A stretch of DNA of 32,000 nucleotides from Candidatus Saccharimonadota bacterium (GTDB lineage: Bacteria > Patescibacteriota > Saccharimonadia > Saccharimonadales > Saccharimonadaceae). The position numbers and the translations under genes are program-made. The notes below the pieces were generated by a model. That model worked only from the letters and a program-made list of their open reading frames with translations, did not search any database and was not told the DNA's origin. Of this stretch, positions 407 to 23,524 are shown piece after piece (position 1 is the first letter of the stretch; the number at the start of each line of letters is the position of its first letter). Location: positions 690,001 through 722,000 of the forward strand of contig JAIUPJ010000001.1 of the NCBI GenBank assembly GCA_020160975.1, read 5' to 3'.

Positions 407-2797
407 ATGAATCGAAAGAAGCAACCAGCTCATCTTGGACAGTATGCAAACCTCGCTAAGCGCAAGCGAGTAGCACGCGTGCGGGCGAGACGAACGGGAC
501 GATTTGCCTGGTTTTGGAATCTTAGTCGCAAGAAAAAATTGTTGCTACTAGCAGCACCTATCGTTATTTTTTTGATTGCCACGCCGTTGGTGACCTATCT
601 CATGTTGGTAAATGACATTCGCGACCCTGAGCGTTTGATGAACCGCAACAATACCGGCATTGTGCTCGAGGATGCCAGCGGTGCTCCGTTCTTTACTGTG
701 GGCCGCGCTGAACATCGCAATCAAGTGCCGCTTGACCAAATATCGGACCCGATGAAAAAGGCACTGATCGCGAGTGAAGATAAAGATTTTTATAAGCACG
801 GAGGCTTCAGCGCCTTTAGTATTGCGCGCGCGCTGGTGACACGGACGGGCGGTGGTTCAACCCTGACTCAGCAATTGGTGAAGAACACATTACTAACCGA
901 CGAGCATAGTTTTTTGCGCAAGTACCAAGAATTATTTATGGCGGTTGCCGTTGAGCAAAATTACACCAAAGACGAGATCCTAGATATGTATCTCAACTCA
1001 GTGTATTTTGGTGAAAATGCTTTTGGTATCGACGATGCTGCGCGGGTGTATTTCAATAAATCGCCAAATGAGCTGACAGTCGCGGAAAGCGCCATGCTCG
1101 TAGGCCTCTTGCCTGCCCCAAGCGCTTACTCGCCGATTAGCGGCACTATGGAGTATGCAAAATCGCGCCAAAATCGTGTACTATCTCGCATGGTGACCGA
1201 GGGGTATATCACCGAAGCAGAAAAAACCGCGGCCTACAATCAGGAATTGGCATACGGCAAAGGTGCGTCAACAGACAATACTACTGCACCGCATTTCGTC
1301 GAGATGGTGATCAACCAGCTGAGTGAGAAATACGGGTATGAAACGGTGATGCGTTCGGGTTACCAAGTTAAGACGACGCTTGATTTGGATGCGCAAAAGA
1401 AGCTTGAGGACAGTGTCGCGGCGGGCATGCCGCATATCAATGCAATGGGAGGCAGCAATGCAAGCGGCATCGTGATCGACCCAAAGAGTGGCGCAATTCG
1501 TGCGCTCGTGGGAAGCGCGGACTATAACAATGATAAGTGGGGCAAAGTAAACATGGTGACAACGGCACGCCAGCCGGGCTCCAGCTTCAAGCCGATTTAT
1601 TATGCGGCAGCTCTTGCCGATGGTGTGATTACACCTGCGACGATTCTGCATGATGTGCGCACTGATTTCGGTGGCGGCTATGTGCCGCTCGATGCCGACA
1701 AAAAATTCCGCGGCGATATCTCGGTTCGGCGTGCAATTAGCCAGTCGCTCAACATTCCAAGCGTTGAGGTGATGCAAAAATACACCATCGACAAATCAGT
1801 CGCTGCGGCTAACAATCTCGGCATCTCGACAGTGAAAAAAGACGGGAATTATGGTCTGGCGCTGGCGCTCGGCGCAGCAGAGGTTCCGCTGGAGCAAATG
1901 ACAAATGCCTATGCAGCGTTTGCCAATCAAGGAGTGCAGCATACGCCAATTCTTGTCACGGGCATCAACAATAAATTTGGTAAGAGTATTTTCACGGCTC
2001 CTACGACAAGCAAACAAGCTATCAACAAAGACGGTGCCTTTCTCATTTCAAGCATTTTGAGCGATAACGCAGCGCGAGCGCCCATATTTGGTGGTAGTCT
2101 AACGGTAAACGGGCATACGGTTGCGGTAAAAACGGGGACAACCAACGACAGTCGTGATGCCTGGACGATTGGTTATAATCCAGACTACGCGGTGGGCGTG
2201 TGGGTCGGAAACAATGACAACACGGCGATGGCGAGTGGCGGATCGGACATGGCTGGGCCAATCTGGCGTAATACAATGACGAAGTTGTTGGCGGACAAGC
2301 CCAATACGCAATTCCCTGTCCCAAGCAGTATCGTACAACGAGATGTTTGTACGGCAAATGGGGGTCTGGCGGACAAGAAAGGGCCAAATACCTACAACGA
2401 GTTCTTTATGTCTGGCGCGTTACCGACAACTAGTTGTACTGCTACGCCAACTATGATTGATGTATGTGATACCGCGACTGGCAAGGTGATTTCAATCGAC
2501 GAGACGAAGTTTGATGCAGGCACACAGAGCAAGGACACGGCAAATTGTAAGCCGCCAACGATTCAAGCTTGTGATCTATCGACAGGAAAAGTCGTGACGA
2601 TCGAGCAATCAGCCTACAATGAGACCAGCTATTCAAAGGATGTAGACAACTGCAAAAAACAGGATTCAAACCAGACGGTAGCTGCATGTAACCTCACGAC
2701 ACACAAAGTAGAGCAAGTCGATCCCACGACCTACGACCAGACGAAATACACGCTGCAATTTACCAAGCAAGGCAGCAATTGTACGCCCACACCCTAG
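407..2797 (+). CDS. Class A penicillin-binding protein (GT51 transglycosylase + transpeptidase) with a C-terminal Cys-bracketed triple repeat
   Basis: N-terminal basic tail and one TM helix. GT51 motifs EDKDFYKHGG and GGSTLTQQLVKN. Transpeptidase motifs SSFKP (SxxK), SLN (SxN) and KTGTT. A -10-like TATAAT lies at 392-397. Confidence 0.9.
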   Translation: MNRKKQPAHLGQYANLAKRKRVARVRARRTGRFAWFWNLSRKKKLLLLAAPIVIFLIATPLVTYLMLVNDIRDPERLMNRNNTGIVLEDASGAPFFTVGRAEHRNQVPLDQISDPMKKALIASEDKDFYKHGGFSAFSIARALVTRTGGGSTLTQQLVKNTLLTDEHSFLRKYQELFMAVAVEQNYTKDEILDMYLNSVYFGENAFGIDDAARVYFNKSPNELTVAESAMLVGLLPAPSAYSPISGTMEYAKSRQNRVLSRMVTEGYITEAEKTAAYNQELAYGKGASTDNTTAPHFVEMVINQLSEKYGYETVMRSGYQVKTTLDLDAQKKLEDSVAAGMPHINAMGGSNASGIVIDPKSGAIRALVGSADYNNDKWGKVNMVTTARQPGSSFKPIYYAAALADGVITPATILHDVRTDFGGGYVPLDADKKFRGDISVRRAISQSLNIPSVEVMQKYTIDKSVAAANNLGISTVKKDGNYGLALALGAAEVPLEQMTNAYAAFANQGVQHTPILVTGINNKFGKSIFTAPTTSKQAINKDGAFLISSILSDNAARAPIFGGSLTVNGHTVAVKTGTTNDSRDAWTIGYNPDYAVGVWVGNNDNTAMASGGSDMAGPIWRNTMTKLLADKPNTQFPVPSSIVQRDVCTANGGLADKKGPNTYNEFFMSGALPTTSCTATPTMIDVCDTATGKVISIDETKFDAGTQSKDTANCKPPTIQACDLSTGKVVTIEQSAYNETSYSKDVDNCKKQDSNQTVAACNLTTHKVEQVDPTTYDQTKYTLQFTKQGSNCTPTP

Positions 2798-2928
2798 TGC
2801 ACGCACATGCCAGCAGCGCGACAAGCAAAAAAGCAAAATTATTATCTCGAGTCACGCAAGCGGTAGGGAGGGGTGGTGATGTGTCGAATCCACTTTGATG
2901 AATCATTGGGAGGGCAGGCCGTCCCTGT

Positions 2929-2934
2929 TATACT
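2929..2934 (+). promoter_or_regulatory. -10-like box TATACT, 6 nt upstream of the ruvA ATG (leaderless-type arrangement)
   Basis: The 15-mer TATACTAAGACTATG is identical to the sequence in front of bcp (26209-26223). It is preceded by the GC-rich imperfect palindrome GGGAGGGCAGGCCGTCCC (2908-2925). Confidence 0.45.
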
Positions 2935-2940
2935 AAGACT

Positions 2941-3513
2941 ATGATTGCACACGTATTTGGGACAGTGGCCGAAAAGTTTGCGGGAACAGTGATTGTAGAT
3001 GTGGCTGGAATTGGCTATGAAGTCAGCGTGGCGGCGGGTGACTATGATGCAGCGTTGCTGGGGCAAGAGATCAAACTCTACACTCATCATCATATTCGTG
3101 AGCAGAGCCAAGAATTGTTTGGGTTTTCATCGCTCGCAGCAAAAAAACTGTTTGAAATGCTGATTACGGTGCAAGGTGTCGGGCCAAAAGCGGCGCTAGC
3201 GATTCTTAGTCTCGACACGGCTGAGAATGTACGTAATGCCATCGCCAATGCCGATAGCGTCTACCTGGCGCGCGCTAGTGGTGTTGGTAAAAAAACCGCC
3301 GAGGGTGTGGTGGTGAAGCTGAGCGACAAAGTTGGCATGCCGGTTATCTACAAGCAATCCAGCAGCGTACAGACCGAGCTCAAAACCAGCGACGAAGCAC
3401 TCGAGGCATTGATTGCACTCGGCTACTCGCTCCAAGATGCCACGAGGGCACTCGAGCATGTCGATACAAAATTATCCACCAGCGAACGTGTGCGAGAGGC
3501 GCTGAAGGGGTAA
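2941..3513 (+). CDS. ruvA: Holliday junction branch migration complex subunit RuvA
   Basis: N-terminus MIAHVFGTV...VIVDVAGIGYEVSV is the typical RuvA OB domain. The helix-hairpin-helix region has VQGVGPKAALAILS and ASGVGKKTAE. A C-terminal domain III is present. It sits upstream of ruvB. Confidence 0.92.
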   Translation: MIAHVFGTVAEKFAGTVIVDVAGIGYEVSVAAGDYDAALLGQEIKLYTHHHIREQSQELFGFSSLAAKKLFEMLITVQGVGPKAALAILSLDTAENVRNAIANADSVYLARASGVGKKTAEGVVVKLSDKVGMPVIYKQSSSVQTELKTSDEALEALIALGYSLQDATRALEHVDTKLSTSERVREALKG

Positions 3514-3514
3514 T

Positions 3515-4054
3515 ATGTCTGAAACGTTAATCCAACTTGTTGATGAAAATGATGTGCCGCTGCGGGGCGGAACGATGGATGAAGCGCAGTTGGAGGGGTT
3601 TTGGCATCGAGTGACAGGCGTAATGGTCAAAGATTCGAGAAGGGGCAAGTACCTACTCCAGAAGATTGCGCCTAATCCATACTACAATGGTGGAAAATGG
3701 AATGTAACCTCCACAGGTCATGTTGACGACGGAGAGTCTTATGTTGATGCAGCAGCACGAGAAGCTGAAGAAGAAATGGGAATTGTTGGTTTGAATCTCG
3801 TAGAATTCGATGCGTATCGTGCAGAAAAGGAAGCGTATCGCACCGGCAGGAACCGGATGTACAAGAGGCATTATAAGATATTTTTGGCAGAAGCTAACAG
3901 CGATAATCTAGTAGTTTCTCCCGACGAGTCAGAAGTTGAGGAAGTGGTTTGGATGTCTGGAGATGAGCTAACTCGAATAAGGGCTAAGTCGCCGCAGCTA
4001 TTTTCGGATACTTTAAATCGATTTATCGATAGGGAATTTCCTAATGGCAATTGA
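3515..4054 (+). CDS. Nudix hydrolase (IDI/YfcD-like subfamily)
   Basis: Nudix box [23 protein letters not shown] (Gx5Ex7REUxEExGU). It starts 1 nt after the ruvA stop and overlaps the ruvB start by 11 nt. Confidence 0.8.
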
Positions 4055-5965: not shown

Positions 5966-6361
5966 CTAGTTATTGCGATTTGTTTTGATGTAATCTGCCT
6001 CACGCTCGAGACTCGAGCGGAGTTCGTAGCCTTTACAGTGATTATCGGTGGTACAGTCTTTGCCCGTGTAGCGGTAGTCGGCTCCCTCTTCACCTAGCTT
6101 GACTCCCAGTGGGTCAGTAAAAAGTCCTGGGTCCATAGCGCGCAATGTCTTGCTGTCGATATTTGCGGGATAATAGTGGTTCTTCTCGTAGAACACTTCT
6201 TCCAGATTGTAATACATGGCGTTGATGGCAATCTTGCGCTGGGAATCTCGCTGTACGGCGTCAACACGGGATTTCTCACTAAAGAACAGCCAGCTGCCCA
6301 CAGCCAAGACGACGATAATAACAAGAAGTTCGAGCACAGTAAAACCAGACGTACGTTTCAT
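5966..6361 (-). CDS. Type IV pilin / pseudopilin with prepilin N-methylation signal
   Basis: MKRTSG|FTVLELLVIIVVLAV matches the class III signal peptide (G/FTxxE plus a hydrophobic helix). A C-terminal Cys pair (CTTDNHC) resembles a D-region disulfide. I use the ATG at 6361 rather than the ORF-track start at 6406, because TATAAT (6368-6373, minus strand) lies 6 nt upstream of it. Confidence 0.8.
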   Translation of the reverse strand: MKRTSGFTVLELLVIIVVLAVGSWLFFSEKSRVDAVQRDSQRKIAINAMYYNLEEVFYEKNHYYPANIDSKTLRAMDPGLFTDPLGVKLGEEGADYRYTGKDCTTDNHCKGYELRSSLEREADYIKTNRNN

Positions 6362-6468
6362 GTGATTATTATAGCAAATATGTGCGCTTATGTTTGTACT
6401 TACCATAACAACGGAGTACGCTAGGCGTATCAGTGGTATAATAAAGAGAGTAATAAAGGGGGAGTGAC

Positions 6469-7506
6469 GTGGCTAAAAAGACTGAAAGTAAAGTGCTGGC
6501 CGAGAAGCCAACTGCCGACGAGGGAAAACTAAAAGCGCTAGGGCTAGCGATGGATCAAATCACCAAGCAATTTGGTGATGGCAGTATCATGAAATTGGGT
6601 GAGGCAAAAAAAGTAGATGTCGAGCTATTGCCGAGCGGAGCACTATCGCTTGATATTGCCCTTGGCGGCGGCTATCCTAAAGGCCGTATCATCGAGATTT
6701 ATGGCCCAGAATCTTCGGGTAAAACAACTTTGACGCTGCATGCGATTGCTGAAATTCAGCGCCAAGGTGGCACGGCGGCATTTATCGACGCCGAGCACGC
6801 GCTTGACCCTGCGTACGCCAAGAAACTCGGTGTTGATACTGATAATCTATTGGTGAGCCAGCCGGATAATGGCGAGCAAGCCCTAGAGATTTGTGAAACC
6901 TTGGTGCGCAGCAATGCGGTTGATTTGATTGTCGTGGATAGTGTGGCGGCATTGGTGCCACAGGCTGAAATTGATGGTGATATGGGCGATAGCCATATGG
7001 GTCTTCAGGCACGTTTGATGAGCCAGGCGCTCCGCAAGTTGACGGGTATTATCAATAAGTCGCATGCGACGGTTATCTTCATCAACCAAATTCGTATGAA
7101 GATCGGCGTGATGTTTGGTAATCCAGAGACGACAACTGGTGGTAATGCCTTAAAATTCTACGCCTCAGTCCGCGCCGACATCCGCCGCACCGGGCAGATC
7201 AAAGAGGGCGAAGAAATCATCGGTAATCGTACCAAGGTGAAGATCGTTAAGAACAAGATTGCTCCGCCATTTAGAATTGCCGAATTTGACATCATGTACA
7301 ACGAAGGCATCTCTAAGACCGGCGACGTACTCGACCTCGCAGTACAACACGGCATTGTCGGCAAAGCTGGTGCATGGTTTGATTATAACGATGCGAAGAT
7401 TGGCCAGGGCCGCGAGCAGACCAAGAAATACTTAAAAGAAAACCCAGAAGTCCTCGCTGAAATCGAGCAAAAGGTTCGCGAAAAAGTAGCTTCTGAGAAC
7501 GAATAG
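6469..7506 (+). CDS. recA: Recombinase RecA
   Basis: Walker [10 protein letters not shown], Walker [11 protein letters not shown], and the L2 region [29 protein letters not shown] start with Shine-Dalgarno AAGGGGGAG 6455-6463. Extended -10 TGGTATAAT at 6434-6442. Confidence 0.97.
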
Positions 7507-19792: not shown

Positions 19793-19986
19793 GGTTTTAT
19801 GATAGCATGAGCCAAGAAAAAGGAGGGCGAAAGGACTCACCAACGTTCCGCGGACGTGGAAATCAGGCAGATAACTAAATGGAAAGGACATCGGCTGAAG
19901 CCTCCTCCGCTTGCTTGAAATAAAAAATAGCTGACGCTGCTTTGTTTCTGCACTGCGCTGCGCCAAACTTCGGCCCAATTACGGAT

Positions 19987-20028
19987 CAAAGTAAAAAGAC
20001 TGGCATGAATGCCAGTCTTTTTACTTTG
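19987..20028. terminator. Bidirectional rho-independent terminator
   Basis: Perfect 42-nt palindrome CAAAGTAAAAAGACTGGCAT-GA-ATGCCAGTCTTTTTACTTTG. It has a GC-containing 9-bp core stem flanked by an A5 run on one side and a T5 run on the other. It is the only strong terminator I can see in the window. Confidence 0.8.
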
Positions 20029-20379
20029 GTCGGCTCAGAACGACACTCAACGAACCTATCTACAAAATAGTCTATATACGATTTTGCGAAACCATCAGCA
20101 ATTTAGAGATAAGGTCGAGAAGCTACAACGCATTGTCGATAACGCTGTAAAGCCAGAGGGCTTGGAGCTTATCAAGTTTGTGTAGCGTATAATGTAGATA
20201 ATATGAGCGACACCGACGAAACCAAAGAAAACACAATGCTTCAAGAAAGTGAAGCCGTAGAATTGCTACCACAACAATAAGCAACCGATACAAGCAACTG
20301 GGACAACAAAGTCTCTACCGACCCTAGTGGCGAAAAGTACATATGAGCAGAAGACGAAGAAGCCTAGGTACTGACGAGT

Positions 20380-20793: not shown

Positions 20794-20999
20794 AGTTCTA
20801 TAATAACAGCCCCCCTACCCATAGAACGTGTTGTTTTACGGAAGCTTGTAAACGCACTTGTCAGCTAAAAATACGTCAGTATCAAAAAATGGTTTGTTCT
20901 GCCATTTCACCCAACAATTACTAACTGGGGTCGGTATTGAAAAATCGCCCAACAACCTAAAATAGTCAGAACAGAGGTAGGAGGTTACCTTATTGTTAG

Positions 21000-21740
21000 C
21001 TACTGGGCTGTTTTATTGGCTTCGGTATTTTCTTTAAGACTATAGTGGTCAAGAACATGCCTGATATTTTCTGCTAGTTGAGAGGGGCTTACGTTGACGA
21101 AGACTTTGAGTGGGTGGTTATCTGGTAGATTAACGAAATAGTCTTCACGACGTTCAACATCCCAGTGCTGGATTGAGGTGCGTAGTTTATTGACCTCGTC
21201 AACTTTCTCCATGAGCTCAGTACCGTAGATACTAGACTTACCCGAAAGTTGGGATGCTAATTTAGTGACCTTTGTTACAAAACCTTTGGCAGTAAACTCG
21301 GGAAAGATCAGCTCTTTTCCGTCAATCTCTACTTTTCTCTCTTTGTTTTTGCGTATGTACAATTCGTACACCATACTCTCAAGTGAAGAATATAAACCAA
21401 GCAACCCTAAGGACAGTAGTTGGATATAAGTGTAGAAAAGCTCCTCATCAACTAGGTGGTGGCTGCCGTTAGTTGTCGTGGTCTTCAAAGCCCGTGATTT
21501 GATAGCTTCTGCCTTGTCTAATTCTCTTTTTGACTGGAAAAAGATAAGTTCTGCCATACTCGGCAACGATAACGATACTTGTTGACCACCTATATCAACA
21601 AACGCAGAGCCTCGTACTACCGACCCTACTGGAAGCTCTATGCCGTTGGGACCCTTAAATGGCTTAGTGGTCGTTGACTCAAAGAGAACACGAGGGTCAC
21701 CGTATTTGATTGACCTATATTTTCTATTGTTACTAGCCAT
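21000..21740 (-). CDS. Hypothetical 246-aa protein; possible HEPN-like RNase (two Rx4H motifs)
   Basis: I recognise no family. The N-terminal ~70 aa look beta-rich, and the rest looks helical. R187-TSIQ-H192 and R227-HVLD-H232 both fit the HEPN Rx4-6H signature in the C-terminal third. The gene lies 6 nt after the S51-like gene with AGGA upstream. Confidence 0.3.
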   Translation of the reverse strand: MASNNRKYRSIKYGDPRVLFESTTTKPFKGPNGIELPVGSVVRGSAFVDIGGQQVSLSLPSMAELIFFQSKRELDKAEAIKSRALKTTTTNGSHHLVDEELFYTYIQLLSLGLLGLYSSLESMVYELYIRKNKERKVEIDGKELIFPEFTAKGFVTKVTKLASQLSGKSSIYGTELMEKVDEVNKLRTSIQHWDVERREDYFVNLPDNHPLKVFVNVSPSQLAENIRHVLDHYSLKENTEANKTAQ

Positions 21741-21746
21741 ACAATC

Positions 21747-22343
21747 CTACTGTTCAAATACTTTATATTCACCCTCTTCTAAAGCGTAAATTGGTAGTGA
21801 ATTATCACCATATTCTTCAAGTTCACGCTTCGCCTGCTCCCAGTCAATACTGCCACGTGGGTCATCATCACCAAATGCTGAGTTGTAATGGGGTATAAGC
21901 TTGATTGGCAACATGCCAAGACCATCACCGCACTGTCTCCAGTCACAAGTCCAGTAGTGTGTAACCAGCAGATTAGAGCTAGCCGAGTTAGTTGCAACGA
22001 CTTTATCCTTGAATAACTCTAATAAATCAAACTGACGCATCCAGTACTGAATTAGGTGGTCATCTCCACCGTGGAAGTAGATAATATCAGCTTCGCTACA
22101 TTGTCTAGCAAAAGTATCGGGCATTGCTAAAGCAAATGATGGACTTACGCTATCTGGCAAATCTTCTGATATAGCGTCCGAGTAGCCTCGAAACTTTGCC
22201 TCCCAATACTCCCTGCCTTGTGCGAAATTACAGAGAAGAAACTTAGGATTATTGCCTAAGTTTTTGACAAGTTCCCTATGGAACTCTCGCTTGAGATTTG
22301 GTGCGTTTTTTATACCGCCAGAGTTAAGAACATACTTTGTCAT
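21747..22343 (-). CDS. Peptidase S51 / type 1 glutamine amidotransferase-like hydrolase
   Basis: YFHGGDDHLIQYW (GG[DN]xxxL) and VVATNSASSN (a GxSAG-like nucleophile region) in about 200 aa resemble PepE/cyanophycinase-type S51 proteins. I use the ATG at 22343, which forms an ATGA overlap with the upstream stop. Confidence 0.5.
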   Translation of the reverse strand: MTKYVLNSGGIKNAPNLKREFHRELVKNLGNNPKFLLCNFAQGREYWEAKFRGYSDAISEDLPDSVSPSFALAMPDTFARQCSEADIIYFHGGDDHLIQYWMRQFDLLELFKDKVVATNSASSNLLVTHYWTCDWRQCGDGLGMLPIKLIPHYNSAFGDDDPRGSIDWEQAKRELEEYGDNSLPIYALEEGEYKVFEQ

Positions 22344-22960
22344 CGAGCCAAATCCCAAGTTGCAATTTGTCTAACACAAGTCCCGTTAGTGCCCATCTCG
22401 AATAATCCAATCCTATTGAAGACCCCACTAAAAGTACTGACGTCACTAGGTAGCAGGTTCAGTACTTCAGGTTTGTGCTCTTTTAAACGAGTGAGTGTAA
22501 TATGTGGTCTAAACAAATCGCCGATAGCTGGATAGCCATACTTTTGCAGGTTCTCAAGCTTTAGTCCTGTTGCATCTTGCATTTTTGCGATGTCACTTTC
22601 ACGCATACCAGCTCTGACAGGGTTAATCGCATCAACGATAGCATTTTGAAGCCCTGTCAGCTCATCAGTCACTTTATATTCTGGGTCGACATAACCAACT
22701 CCAAAACCTTGCCCTAAAGAGTACTTTGTAGCGGTAGCTGAAACCACTTGCGTCTGTTTAGCAATCTCGTTTAGTAAGGCTTCGACATTTTGTATATCAG
22801 TCTCTTCTAGCTGAAACATATAAAGTGACATATGTGGATAAAACTTGCCTACCTCAAGAGTAAAAAAACTATCAAGACTACTTATTGTCTTGCTGGCTTC
22901 GATGGCTTTATCGGCTAGTTCTTTAGAGGGCAAAAGCACTATGTCACAAGGGATGCTCAT
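22340..22960 (-). CDS. 2H phosphoesterase superfamily protein (LigT / cyclic phosphodiesterase-like)
   Basis: Two HxS/T motifs in the expected context and spacing: FYPHMSLYMF and FRPHITLTRL. I use the ATG at 22960, with TATAAT (22968-22973, minus strand) 7 nt upstream. The ORF-track N-terminal extension to 23068 looks non-coding. Confidence 0.6.
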   Translation of the reverse strand: MSIPCDIVLLPSKELADKAIEASKTISSLDSFFTLEVGKFYPHMSLYMFQLEETDIQNVEALLNEIAKQTQVVSATATKYSLGQGFGVGYVDPEYKVTDELTGLQNAIVDAINPVRAGMRESDIAKMQDATGLKLENLQKYGYPAIGDLFRPHITLTRLKEHKPEVLNLLPSDVSTFSGVFNRIGLFEMGTNGTCVRQIATWDLAR

Positions 22961-23055
22961 ATTTTTAATTATATACCAGAAAACCGTCGAACCTAGATTA
23001 CAAGCTCTAATGATAGGCAGTATGGCTATGAGGAGAAGAAAACCAGAACACGTAA

Positions 23056-23448
23056 AAAGCAAGTGCACGACCGCTTAGTGATAAGCAGTTGAAGCAAGCC
23101 GAGCAAGTTGTAGCCGAAAGCCTAAAAGATAACCCAGAGTTATTCAATCTACAAGTACCATGAGGGCAAACTAGAGGAGCACCAACAGCTGATACGCCTA
23201 GATGAAGAAACTATAACTGGCAACAAGACTGAACTAGCTAAGCTTGATACTTCACTGGCAACTGAGCAAGAGTTCTACGAACTCACACGTTCTAAGTTGT
23301 TAAACATGCTTAAAACTAATGACATCATGACTTTTGACACTATATGTAATGAGTTCGTTGCGAACCTACGTGCTGGAGATGATTCCACCCCTGTCATAAA
23401 GCTAAATCCACCATACAATTTGATGGTGGATTTAGAAAAAGTTCCTTC
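23056..23448 (+). pseudogene. Frameshifted C-terminal remnant of a recombinase-like (large serine recombinase-type coiled-coil) gene
   Basis: There are two open segments with no usable start. Frame 1 (23056-23163) reads ...RPLSDKQLKQAEQVVAESLKDNPELFNLQVP*. Frame 2 (from 23126) reads ...YHEGKLEEHQQLIRLDEETITGNKTELAKLDTSLATEQEFYELTRSKLLNMLK...VIKLNPPYNLMVDLEK and runs into the tRNA. The heptad-rich texture resembles serine integrase C-termini, but the family call is weak. Confidence 0.35.
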
Positions 23449-23524
23449 TGGTCGGGGTGAAAGGACTCAAACCTTCGACCTCACGGTCCCAAACCGCGCG
23501 CGCTATCAACTGCGCCACACCCCG
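23449..23524 (-). tRNA. tRNA-Pro (anticodon UGG), CCA encoded
   Basis: The reverse complement folds as a cloverleaf: CGGGGTG TG GCGC AGTTGATA GCGC G CGCGG TTTGGGA CCGTG AGGTC GAAGG TTTGAGT CCTTT CACCCCG A CCA. The 7-bp acceptor stem is perfect, the anticodon loop is UU-UGG-GA with G37, and the length is 76 nt. Confidence 0.92.

Follow-up and report, generated by a model that had tools for sequence, protein, structure and literature searches.

In a 32,000-nucleotide (nt) stretch of a Candidatus Saccharimonadota genome (assembly GCA_020160975.1, contig JAIUPJ010000001.1, positions 690,001 to 722,000; hereafter the window), three adjacent genes on the minus strand, g1, g2 and g3, encode a 2H phosphoesterase, a divergent S51-like hydrolase and a 246-amino-acid (aa) protein of no named family (Table 1). 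An earlier reading of the sequence alone, here called the original prediction, had joined them in a single candidate RNA-cleavage system. Comparison with related loci tips the balance, modestly, towards another view, namely that the three genes are the co-transcribed cargo of a decayed island and form no dedicated system, and that g3 is a HEPN-type effector. In the most likely form of this view g3 would be a stand-alone ribonuclease (RNase) effector of HEPN type, one item of cargo on a mobile island. The Saccharibacteria, like other Patescibacteria, live on host bacteria and have tiny genomes; little of their mobile elements and immune repertoires has been charted.

The open reading frames (ORFs), gene junctions, TATAAT box and peptide motifs described in the original prediction were all found where it had placed them. 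The stop codon of g1 overlaps the start codon of g2 in CGATGAC (22340-22343), and a 6-nt gap separates g2 from g3 in CAGTAGGATTGTATG, where the stop codon is spanned by AGGA. The three genes are thus tightly packed and probably co-transcribed. A TATAAT hexamer lies at 22973-22968 on the minus strand, 7 nt ahead of the g1 ATG at 22960; it was left uncalled by a sigma-70 scan because it has no -35 hexamer. Nevertheless, TTTTCTGGTATATAAT, which holds the TATAAT region, is kept at the equivalent position in a related element, L025 (loci are referred to by such numbers throughout). Given that TATAAT stands just 7 nt from the ATG and that the g1 start region contains no Shine-Dalgarno sequence, the g1 mRNA is, as read from the sequence, probably leaderless in translation. 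In L025 the same box stands approximately 30 nt ahead of g3, with AAGGTG after it. Databases already contain exact copies of the three proteins under "Patescibacteria group bacterium", with g1 annotated as DUF1045 and both g2 and g3 as hypothetical.

The relatives of g3 fall into 49 clusters at 90% identity, and an exhaustive phmmer search gave just 12 representatives at 50%, all of them unannotated. They come only from Saccharibacteria/Patescibacteria assemblies, and the related loci are from Candidatus Saccharibacteria metagenome-assembled genomes. A profile search with 34 family members recovered no added relatives and no link to annotated families. Moreover, g3 is unmatched in Pfam, NCBIfam, PADLOC and PHROGs, so that it still bears no family name, as first reported, and matches no unrelated known family; nor did IMG/VR viral contigs, GenBank phages or PLSDB plasmids contain any relatives. 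The ratio of non-synonymous to synonymous substitution rates (dN/dS) of g3 is 0.07-0.23, indicating purifying selection.

Two Rx4H motifs occur in g3, LRTSIQHW (residues 186-193) and IRHVLDHY (residues 226-233). In shuffled g3 sequences the probability of at least one Rx4H is 0.25 and that of at least two is 0.027; a chance Rx4H is thus nothing rare here, and the weight rests on how the family conserves the motif and not on its mere occurrence. R187-x4-H192 is invariant in a 31-sequence alignment. Across 34 sequences, reaching down to 30% identity, R187 and E126 are invariant and Q191, H192 and R130 are each at least 90% conserved. The sole exception around R187 is the truncated sequence P0058, the motif being kept in every sequence that reaches the region, and two full-length distant homologues (30-33% identity) read LRHxxQHW there. 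E121 is also invariant, as are G14, D15, R17 and E21 (GDxRxxxE) in the N-terminal domain. The second motif, R227-H232, had been given equal weight to the first. This did not survive comparison: it is lost in distant members (RSIIDY in P0053, DSIISH in P0056) and does not stand at the canonical HEPN position. That it might form half of an intramolecular double active site was considered and rejected, since it is unconserved in those members. A 207-aa variant of g3 at L008, recorded on 12 contigs, carries an in-frame 114-nt deletion (window 21016-21129; L008 5001-5624) that takes away residues ~204-241 and with them helix 4, H209 and the second Rx4H. This variant may be an inactivated toxin allele.

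HEPN domains are defined as four-helix up-down bundles with frequent inserts between helices 2 and 3 and an often kinked helix 4; the Rx4-6H site lies at the end of helix 3 or the start of the loop to helix 4, and helix 2 carries a further conserved acidic residue, typically in Ex3[KR] (PMC3710099). An AlphaFold2 (AF2) model of full-length g3 reached a predicted local distance difference test score (pLDDT) of 88 and a predicted template-modelling score of 0.83, and residues 59-238 modelled alone reached a pLDDT of 92.5. The models are beta-rich from residue 17, with N-terminal strands at residues 21-23, 41-43, 45-50 and 53-58. The helical domain then runs in the order helix 1 (62-84), a beta-hairpin, helix 2 (99-131), an insert (132-174) and helix 3 (175-191), followed by a loop and a kinked helix 4 (210-216 and 219-232). 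In these predicted, not solved, structures helix 3 ends at Q191 and H192 opens the loop. Thus g3 combines a conserved Rx4-6H motif, its placement at helix 3's end and an acidic Ex3[KR] motif in helix 2, all as expected of HEPN proteins. When the model was searched against the PDB with Foldseek, HepT, HEPN-toxin and Csm6 chains made up 17/50 top matches, the remainder being generic four-helix bundles. Probabilities (as high as 0.97-0.98) and template-modelling scores (TMt as high as 0.59) were greatest among the HEPN-type chains. The best compact match was HepT 7bxo_F (probability 0.97, TMt 0.59, E 0.2). Since its motifs and predicted topology agree with the published definition (PMC3710099), and despite weak fold-search statistics, we consider that g3 probably, but not demonstrably, represents a new HEPN family whose N-terminal domain is novel. 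The suggestion that the C-terminal half of g3 is a HEPN bundle is supported by motif conservation, topology and the AF2 model, but not by a significant fold match.

The grouping of the three genes fared differently. The window was compared with every locus encoding a g3 relative, and these loci were then searched with tblastn and blastn. The gene g1 stands beside g3 in just three of them, the near-identical L008-L010, whose g3 is at least 96% identical. In L006 (g3 96%) an unrelated 181-aa ORF takes the place of g1 before g2, and in L001 (g3 92%) a DUF1749 alpha/beta hydrolase does so. What L001 and L006 share with the window at the nucleotide level is exactly 20808-22344, comprising g2, g3 and a 190-nt 3′ flank, and the homology breaks at the g2 start codon. 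The gene g2 is found near g3 only where g3 is at least 92% identical, and neither g1 nor g2 lies within 5 kb of any g3 homologue of 78% identity or less. Elsewhere g3 is equally closely coupled to other genes, encoding a DUF2779/Cas4-like nuclease in L015, a membrane protein of 110 aa in L019, a protein of 308 aa in L020 and a class-II aminoacyl-tRNA synthetase in L003 and L013; in genomes this compact, closely spaced or overlapping genes are usual. Moreover, synonymous divergence (dS) is discordant between g2 and g3 (0.28 and 0.08 respectively against L006, 0.23 and 0.55 against L001), which points to recombination between the genes and to a mosaic g2-g3 block. With g1 swapped at 92-96% g3 identity and g2 absent at 78% or below, the trio is not a system, and the adjacency of g1 and g2 to g3 is recent and lineage-specific. 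The original prediction had the 2H enzyme reverse or limit the products of a HEPN RNase, or degrade a nucleotide signal, with the S51-like protein as a third activity. The tight packing and probable co-transcription favour such a scheme, g1 is a genuine 2H enzyme, and g3 has HEPN hallmarks; 2H enzymes can hydrolyse 2′,3′-cyclic phosphates (PMC4201822), and these are the ends that HEPN RNases leave (PMC3710099). It nevertheless founders on its own expectation of co-occurrence, which fails beyond the strain level, and PADLOC has no model for g1, g2 or g3, nor for most of their neighbours. We regard a three-component RNA-cleavage or cyclic-phosphate system as very improbable and, on co-occurrence, as essentially refuted.

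Several observations weigh against the view that g3 is a stand-alone HEPN effector among unrelated cargo, and two further explanations draw on them. No Foldseek match of g3 is significant (best E 0.05-0.2; root-mean-square deviation 6-8 Å), generic four-helix bundles such as PA26 and syntaxin score about as well as the HEPN proteins by E-value, and re-predicting the domain alone raised model confidence but not the fold-search statistics; the BFVD collection of viral structures, also searched with Foldseek, was of no help. Neither by sequence nor by profile could g3 be linked to a HEPN family already described, to a PADLOC model or to a chain in the PDB. None of 31 g3 members matched a Pfam HEPN family even at E ≤ 10, and hhalign found no signal between the g3 family profile and either the ApeA protein of L021 or the 308-aa protein encoded upstream of g3 in L020. 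Next to the conserved arginine g3 mostly has T, not the typical N, D or H, with H only in distant members, and nothing resembling an antitoxin or immunity protein accompanies what should be a toxic RNase. The fold-search statistics, the missing profile match and the lack of a visible antitoxin, together with the persistence in 12 contigs of the natural variant without helix 4, fit a non-nuclease helical bundle, in which g3 would have a regulatory, anti-defence, structural or adaptor role and the Rx4H and Ex3R motifs would form a binding surface. Some HEPN domains are indeed non-catalytic and merely bind, although inactivity is predicted just for domains without such residues (PMC3710099). Conversely, R187, H192, E126 and the near-invariant R130 are what a HEPN active site would require, are rightly placed and are kept to 30% identity, and we therefore think it rather unlikely that g3 is no nuclease at all.

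The remaining contrary observations concern the company that g3 keeps. The g2-g3 block is common to three backbones (the window, L001 and L006), where it forms a 1.5-kb unit with its 190-nt 3′ flank and sharp breakpoints, and in L017 a second, unrelated S51 protein stands directly upstream of g3: a fusion of a canonical S51 domain (PF03575, E 3e-24) and an alpha/beta hydrolase, 20 nt from a 60%-identical g3. Two more alpha/beta hydrolases are neighbours, one ahead of g2 in L001 and one abutting g3 in L019. On this evidence g2 and g3 could be a two-gene module in which the S51-type hydrolase partners or controls the HEPN-like protein, in the manner of an antitoxin or by processing a peptide or small-molecule signal, with the position upstream as a swappable 'hydrolase slot' for a 2H enzyme, an alpha/beta hydrolase or an unassigned protein. 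This explanation must be set against the size of the g2 family (>820 clusters), which far exceeds that of g3 (~50), and against two sampled g2 genomes that lack g3. In most contexts (L015, L018-L022, L025, L003 and L013) g3 occurs alone or with unrelated partners, most g3 genes have no S51 gene beside them, the discordant dS indicates recombination between g2 and g3, and by our estimate three alpha/beta-hydrolase neighbours among ~120 genes are expectable by chance. A g2-g3 module is consequently unlikely. Its most specific version, an undescribed two-component toxin or defence module in which a peptidase-fold enzyme gates the RNase and the swappable upstream hydrolase tunes it, is more doubtful again. 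A further point against a mobile effector is that one divergent g3 subclade is stable after a class-II aminoacyl-tRNA synthetase with no obvious island (L003 and L013). Here g3 overlaps the 3′ end of the synthetase gene (tRNA-synt_2b and HGTP_anticodon domains; L003 4563-6642, L013 974-3041). The synthetases of the two loci are 47% identical and the g3 copies 45%, and because both genes have diverged so far their adjacency is taken as conserved. In L006, a class-II synthetase also lies 1.7 kb from g3.

If g3 is a HEPN-type effector, it would dimerise like other HEPN proteins, with R187/H192 and E126 forming the RNase site, and would act as a metal-independent endoribonuclease leaving 2′,3′-cyclic phosphate ends. 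The beta-rich N-terminal domain with its GDxRxxxE motif might be the regulatory or sensing part. The anatomy of genes and island, the domain calls, the spread of the family, its conserved motifs and its changing neighbourhoods are observed; the HEPN fold, RNase activity, dimerisation and a defence or toxin role are inferred, and in such a role g3 might serve as a single-protein toxin or abortive-infection-type effector to the benefit of the island or its host. In the simplest view g1 and g2 would be bystander cargo enzymes expressed from the same island promoter.

The neighbourhoods of g3 homologues are consistent with such a role, and the proximity to known defence genes that had been raised as a point to check was indeed found: homologues sit among defence and mobile genes in L015, L018-L021 and L025. 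L015 contains a type III restriction-modification (R-M) system and a DUF2779/Cas4-like nuclease; L018, Alw26I, Eco57I, DNA-methylase, PLD and LexA-like genes; L019, terminase, ParB-methylase and PD-(D/E)XK genes; L020, a 1325-aa type IIG R-M enzyme; L021, ApeA/PDC-S58, Fic and NUDIX genes; and L025, ApeA-like and AbiU2 genes. Serine recombinases are found near g3 in L006, L017 and L025, and a Y1 transposase in L001. The possibility that g3 is itself a recombination directionality factor or backbone gene was rejected, as most g3 loci have no recombinase within 5 kb. The 308-aa protein coupled upstream of g3 in L020 (1092-2018, plus strand) has an Rx4H motif (RSLFLH) and a CxxC zinc-ribbon-like motif and no family match; from these motifs it may be another unrecognised HEPN protein.

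Table 1. Features of the cassette and of the surrounding island, in window coordinates.
Feature	Position	Strand	Description
g1	22340..22960	minus	206-aa 2H phosphoesterase (DUF1045/LigT-like); variable cargo
g2	21747..22343	minus	198-aa divergent S51/class-I glutamine-amidotransferase-like hydrolase
g3	21000..21740	minus	246 aa; beta-rich N-terminal domain and HEPN-like helical C-terminal domain
g3 N-terminal domain, residues 1-58	21567..21740	minus	beta-rich (AF2 model)
g3 HEPN-like domain, residues 59-238	21027..21566	minus	domain-only AF2 model
E126-x3-R130 (E126-L-Y-I-R130)	21351..21365	minus	HEPN-type Ex3[KR] acidic motif, helix 2
R187-x4-H192	21165..21182	minus	putative catalytic HEPN motif, C-terminal end of helix 3
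R227-x4-H232	21045..21062	minus	second Rx4H, end of helix 4; clade-specific
3′ flank of g3	20808..20999	minus	190-nt non-coding; travels with the g2-g3 block in L001 and L006
Divergent regulatory region	22961..23070	.	between cargo operon and recombinase remnant; holds TATAAT 22968-22973
Serine recombinase pseudogene remnant	23071..23458	plus	residues ~53-509 deleted; overlaps tRNA-Pro 3′ end, 23449-23458
tRNA-Pro(TGG)	23449..23524	minus	ARAGORN; Rfam tRNA 60.9 bits; island starts at its 3′ end
SET-domain protein, 137 aa	20380..20793	minus	Pfam SET E 1e-13; in low-GC tract; further cargo
Acidic ~50-aa ORF	20203..20355	plus	far island end, reads inward
58-aa ORF	20009..20185	plus	far island end, reads inward; no Pfam match
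Palindrome, 23-nt near-perfect	19984..20031	.	96% complementary, 2-nt loop; island GC boundary (~0.5 beyond)
tRNA-Pro T-arm repeat, 15 nt (14/15)	19825..19839 (vs 23455-23469)	minus	candidate degenerate attachment site (att), just outside low-GC tract

The cassette probably lies on a decayed integrative island that occupies ~3.6 kb (~19.85-23.45 kb of the window) and adjoins the 3′ end of tRNA-Pro(TGG), its likely insertion site. The GC content of the cassette is 42% against a window average of 50%, and a low-GC tract extends from ~19.9 to 23.6 kb, with values of 0.41-0.45 inside the island and ~0.50-0.56 in the flanks. A tblastn search with the 619-aa recombinase of L025, which has Resolvase and Recombinase domains and adjoins a g3 homologue (78% identical), aligned residues 26-52 to 23071-23151 (89%) and residues 510-611 to 23153-23458 (45%, E 5e-19). 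The remnant thus keeps 27 N-terminal and ~102 C-terminal codons and has lost the catalytic core; with its recombinase cut to 129 codons the island is probably immobile. Between recombinase and g3, L025 1699-1897 (including TTTTCTGGTATATAAT) is 74% identical to window 23155-22957. At the far end of the island, the two small ORFs are homologous to those at L025 6080-6418 (58 and ~46 aa), also at the protein level; the match covers window 20031-20355, and nucleotide identity to L025 6083-6418 is 74%. This pair, comprising an ORF of 58-65 aa and an acidic one of ~46-50 aa, recurs in L008 (~6268-6602), L009 (3160-3312 and ~3810-3920) and L014 (~2456-2772). It is probably part of the element backbone, and its two products may serve the element as regulators or excision factors, or else act together with g3. 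In L014 the pair is found directly upstream of a distant g3 homologue.

Between the ends that the two elements have in common, L025 carries g3, an ApeA_NTD1-like gene, a 271-aa gene and HEPN_AbiU2, and the window carries g1, g2, g3 and the SET gene. The SET gene is absent from L001, L006 and L009; the closest NCBIfam match of its product is weak, to the Legionella effector AnkI/LegAS4 (E 2.7e-4). In L009 (g1-g3 98% identical), region 2344-3755 has a 265-aa phosphoribosyltransferase-like ORF in place of the SET gene, and the two small backbone ORFs are split apart by a NADAR-domain gene (E 1e-33), which is a further sign of cargo turnover. The 190-nt flank of g3 is bounded by the complementary sequences CCTCCTACC and GGGTAGGGGGG and contains two TTGTTGGGYGA repeats; as a structured or antitoxin-like RNA it was rejected, with no Rfam match, a folding z of -0.84 and negligible covariation among three sequences. 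The palindrome at the GC boundary may be a bidirectional terminator or a recombination site. The sole att candidate is the 15-nt repeat of the tRNA T-arm; our estimate of the number that chance would give in the region is ~0.4. Taken together, the island probably belongs to a family of tRNA-targeting integrative islands with exchangeable cargo, previously undescribed in Saccharibacteria.

The assignments of the two accompanying enzymes made in the original prediction were upheld, that of g2 with a Pfam score of its own below threshold. The product of g1 contains PHMSLY (residues 42-47) and PHITLT (residues 152-157), giving the HxS/HxT pair H43-M-S45 and H153-I-T155, and scores above the Pfam cut-offs for both DUF1045 (E 3e-10, 40.7 bits, cut-off 24.3) and LigT_PEase (E 4e-7, 30.5 bits, cut-off 23.3). 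By these two motifs and profile scores it is a member of the 2H phosphoesterase superfamily. The product of g2 contains HGGDDH (residues 91-96) and NSASS (residues 119-123), and its match to Pfam Peptidase_S51 is weak (E 3e-3, 17.5 bits, cut-off 23.9); g2 itself falls under both Pfam and NCBIfam cut-offs. Against the cyanophycinase-like exopeptidase 6nqc (E 0.015) the GGDxH, SA(S/G) and PH(Y/F)N motifs align, with the serine motif NSASS and the histidine motif IPHYN lining up with their counterparts; the acidic residue of the triad was not identified in this comparison. The g2 family is a Saccharibacteria family of >820 homologous clusters, many of them 70-78% identical, and PF03575 is present in about ten close homologues. 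In two other Saccharibacteria genomes (L023 and L024) g2 homologues occur without g1 or g3 in tight arrays, one with RidA, SRPBCC and NUDIX genes and the other with HD, GNAT and Ham1 genes, whose junctions are equally tight. Therefore, g2 appears as a divergent S51-like hydrolase of the kind seen in small-enzyme arrays of Saccharibacteria.

These data show that g3 is missed by current defence-gene libraries. Should it prove to be an active HEPN RNase, it would extend the known HEPN toxins and abortive-infection proteins by a family confined to one lineage, and would flag a family of serine-recombinase islands, targeted to tRNA genes, by which this phylum moves defence cargo (ApeA-like, AbiU2, R-M). 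Moreover, the cassette offers a caution, in that neither a start/stop overlap nor plausible enzymatic complementarity, such as that of an RNase forming cyclic phosphates beside an enzyme opening them, is evidence of a system in compact genomes; once near-identical relatives were compared, the trio of 2H, S51 and HEPN proteins dissolved.

Among described systems, the best compact structural matches of g3 are the HepT (DUF86) toxins of HEPN/MNT pairs (Shewanella SO_3166; 5yep, 6m6u, 7bxo) and the Aphanizomenon HEPN toxin (7ae2/7ae6/7ae8), with TMt of 0.41-0.59 and probabilities up to 0.97-0.98. These are small toxins on mobile or variable loci, and g3 is predicted to share with them a four-helix bundle, a catalytic Rx4H and an upstream acidic residue. 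However, g3 has no DUF86/HEPN profile match, and no nucleotidyltransferase domain of the MNT antitoxin type was found in the window cassette or among the g3 neighbours at the loci examined. It also has an extra beta-rich N-terminal domain of ~58 aa, a beta-hairpin between helices 1 and 2 and an insert of ~40 aa, and its motif is LR[T/H]xxQHW, not RxxxxHxY. Of the accompanying enzymes, g1 resembles 2H phosphoesterases (LigT/ThpR and the DUF1045 'Phn-operon protein') in having both HxT/S motifs and passing the Pfam thresholds, but near it there is no phosphonate operon and there are no RNA-repair partners (RtcB, PNK). Likewise, g2 shares with peptidase family S51 (PepE, cyanophycinase, 6nqc) the GGDxH motif, the SA(S/G) nucleophile and the PH(Y/F)N histidine motif, but scores below the Pfam and NCBIfam cut-offs.

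The island itself is comparable to tRNA-targeting defence islands with large serine recombinases in its probable insertion at a tRNA 3′ end, low GC, tRNA-adjacent recombinase and variable cargo. It differs from them in that its recombinase is only a remnant and its att repeat is weak (14/15), and the element family to which it belongs is known from Saccharibacteria metagenome assemblies only. Close parallels to g3 would be the single-protein HEPN abortive-infection (Abi) and defence proteins ApeA, AbiU2, AbiV, AbiJ and AbiD/F, whose roles are described in PMC3710099. As is predicted for g3, these join a non-HEPN N-terminal part to a C-terminal HEPN domain and stand alone in defence islands, and g3 adjoins ApeA-type genes in L021 and L025 and AbiU2 in L025. 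Unlike them, g3 matches none of the corresponding Pfam or PADLOC models, its N-terminal domain is unrelated and its defence role is a presumed one. Single-protein HEPN effectors in defence islands are thus already known, and what is new here is a family without prior annotation and confined to one lineage, which extends their number usefully but without surprise.

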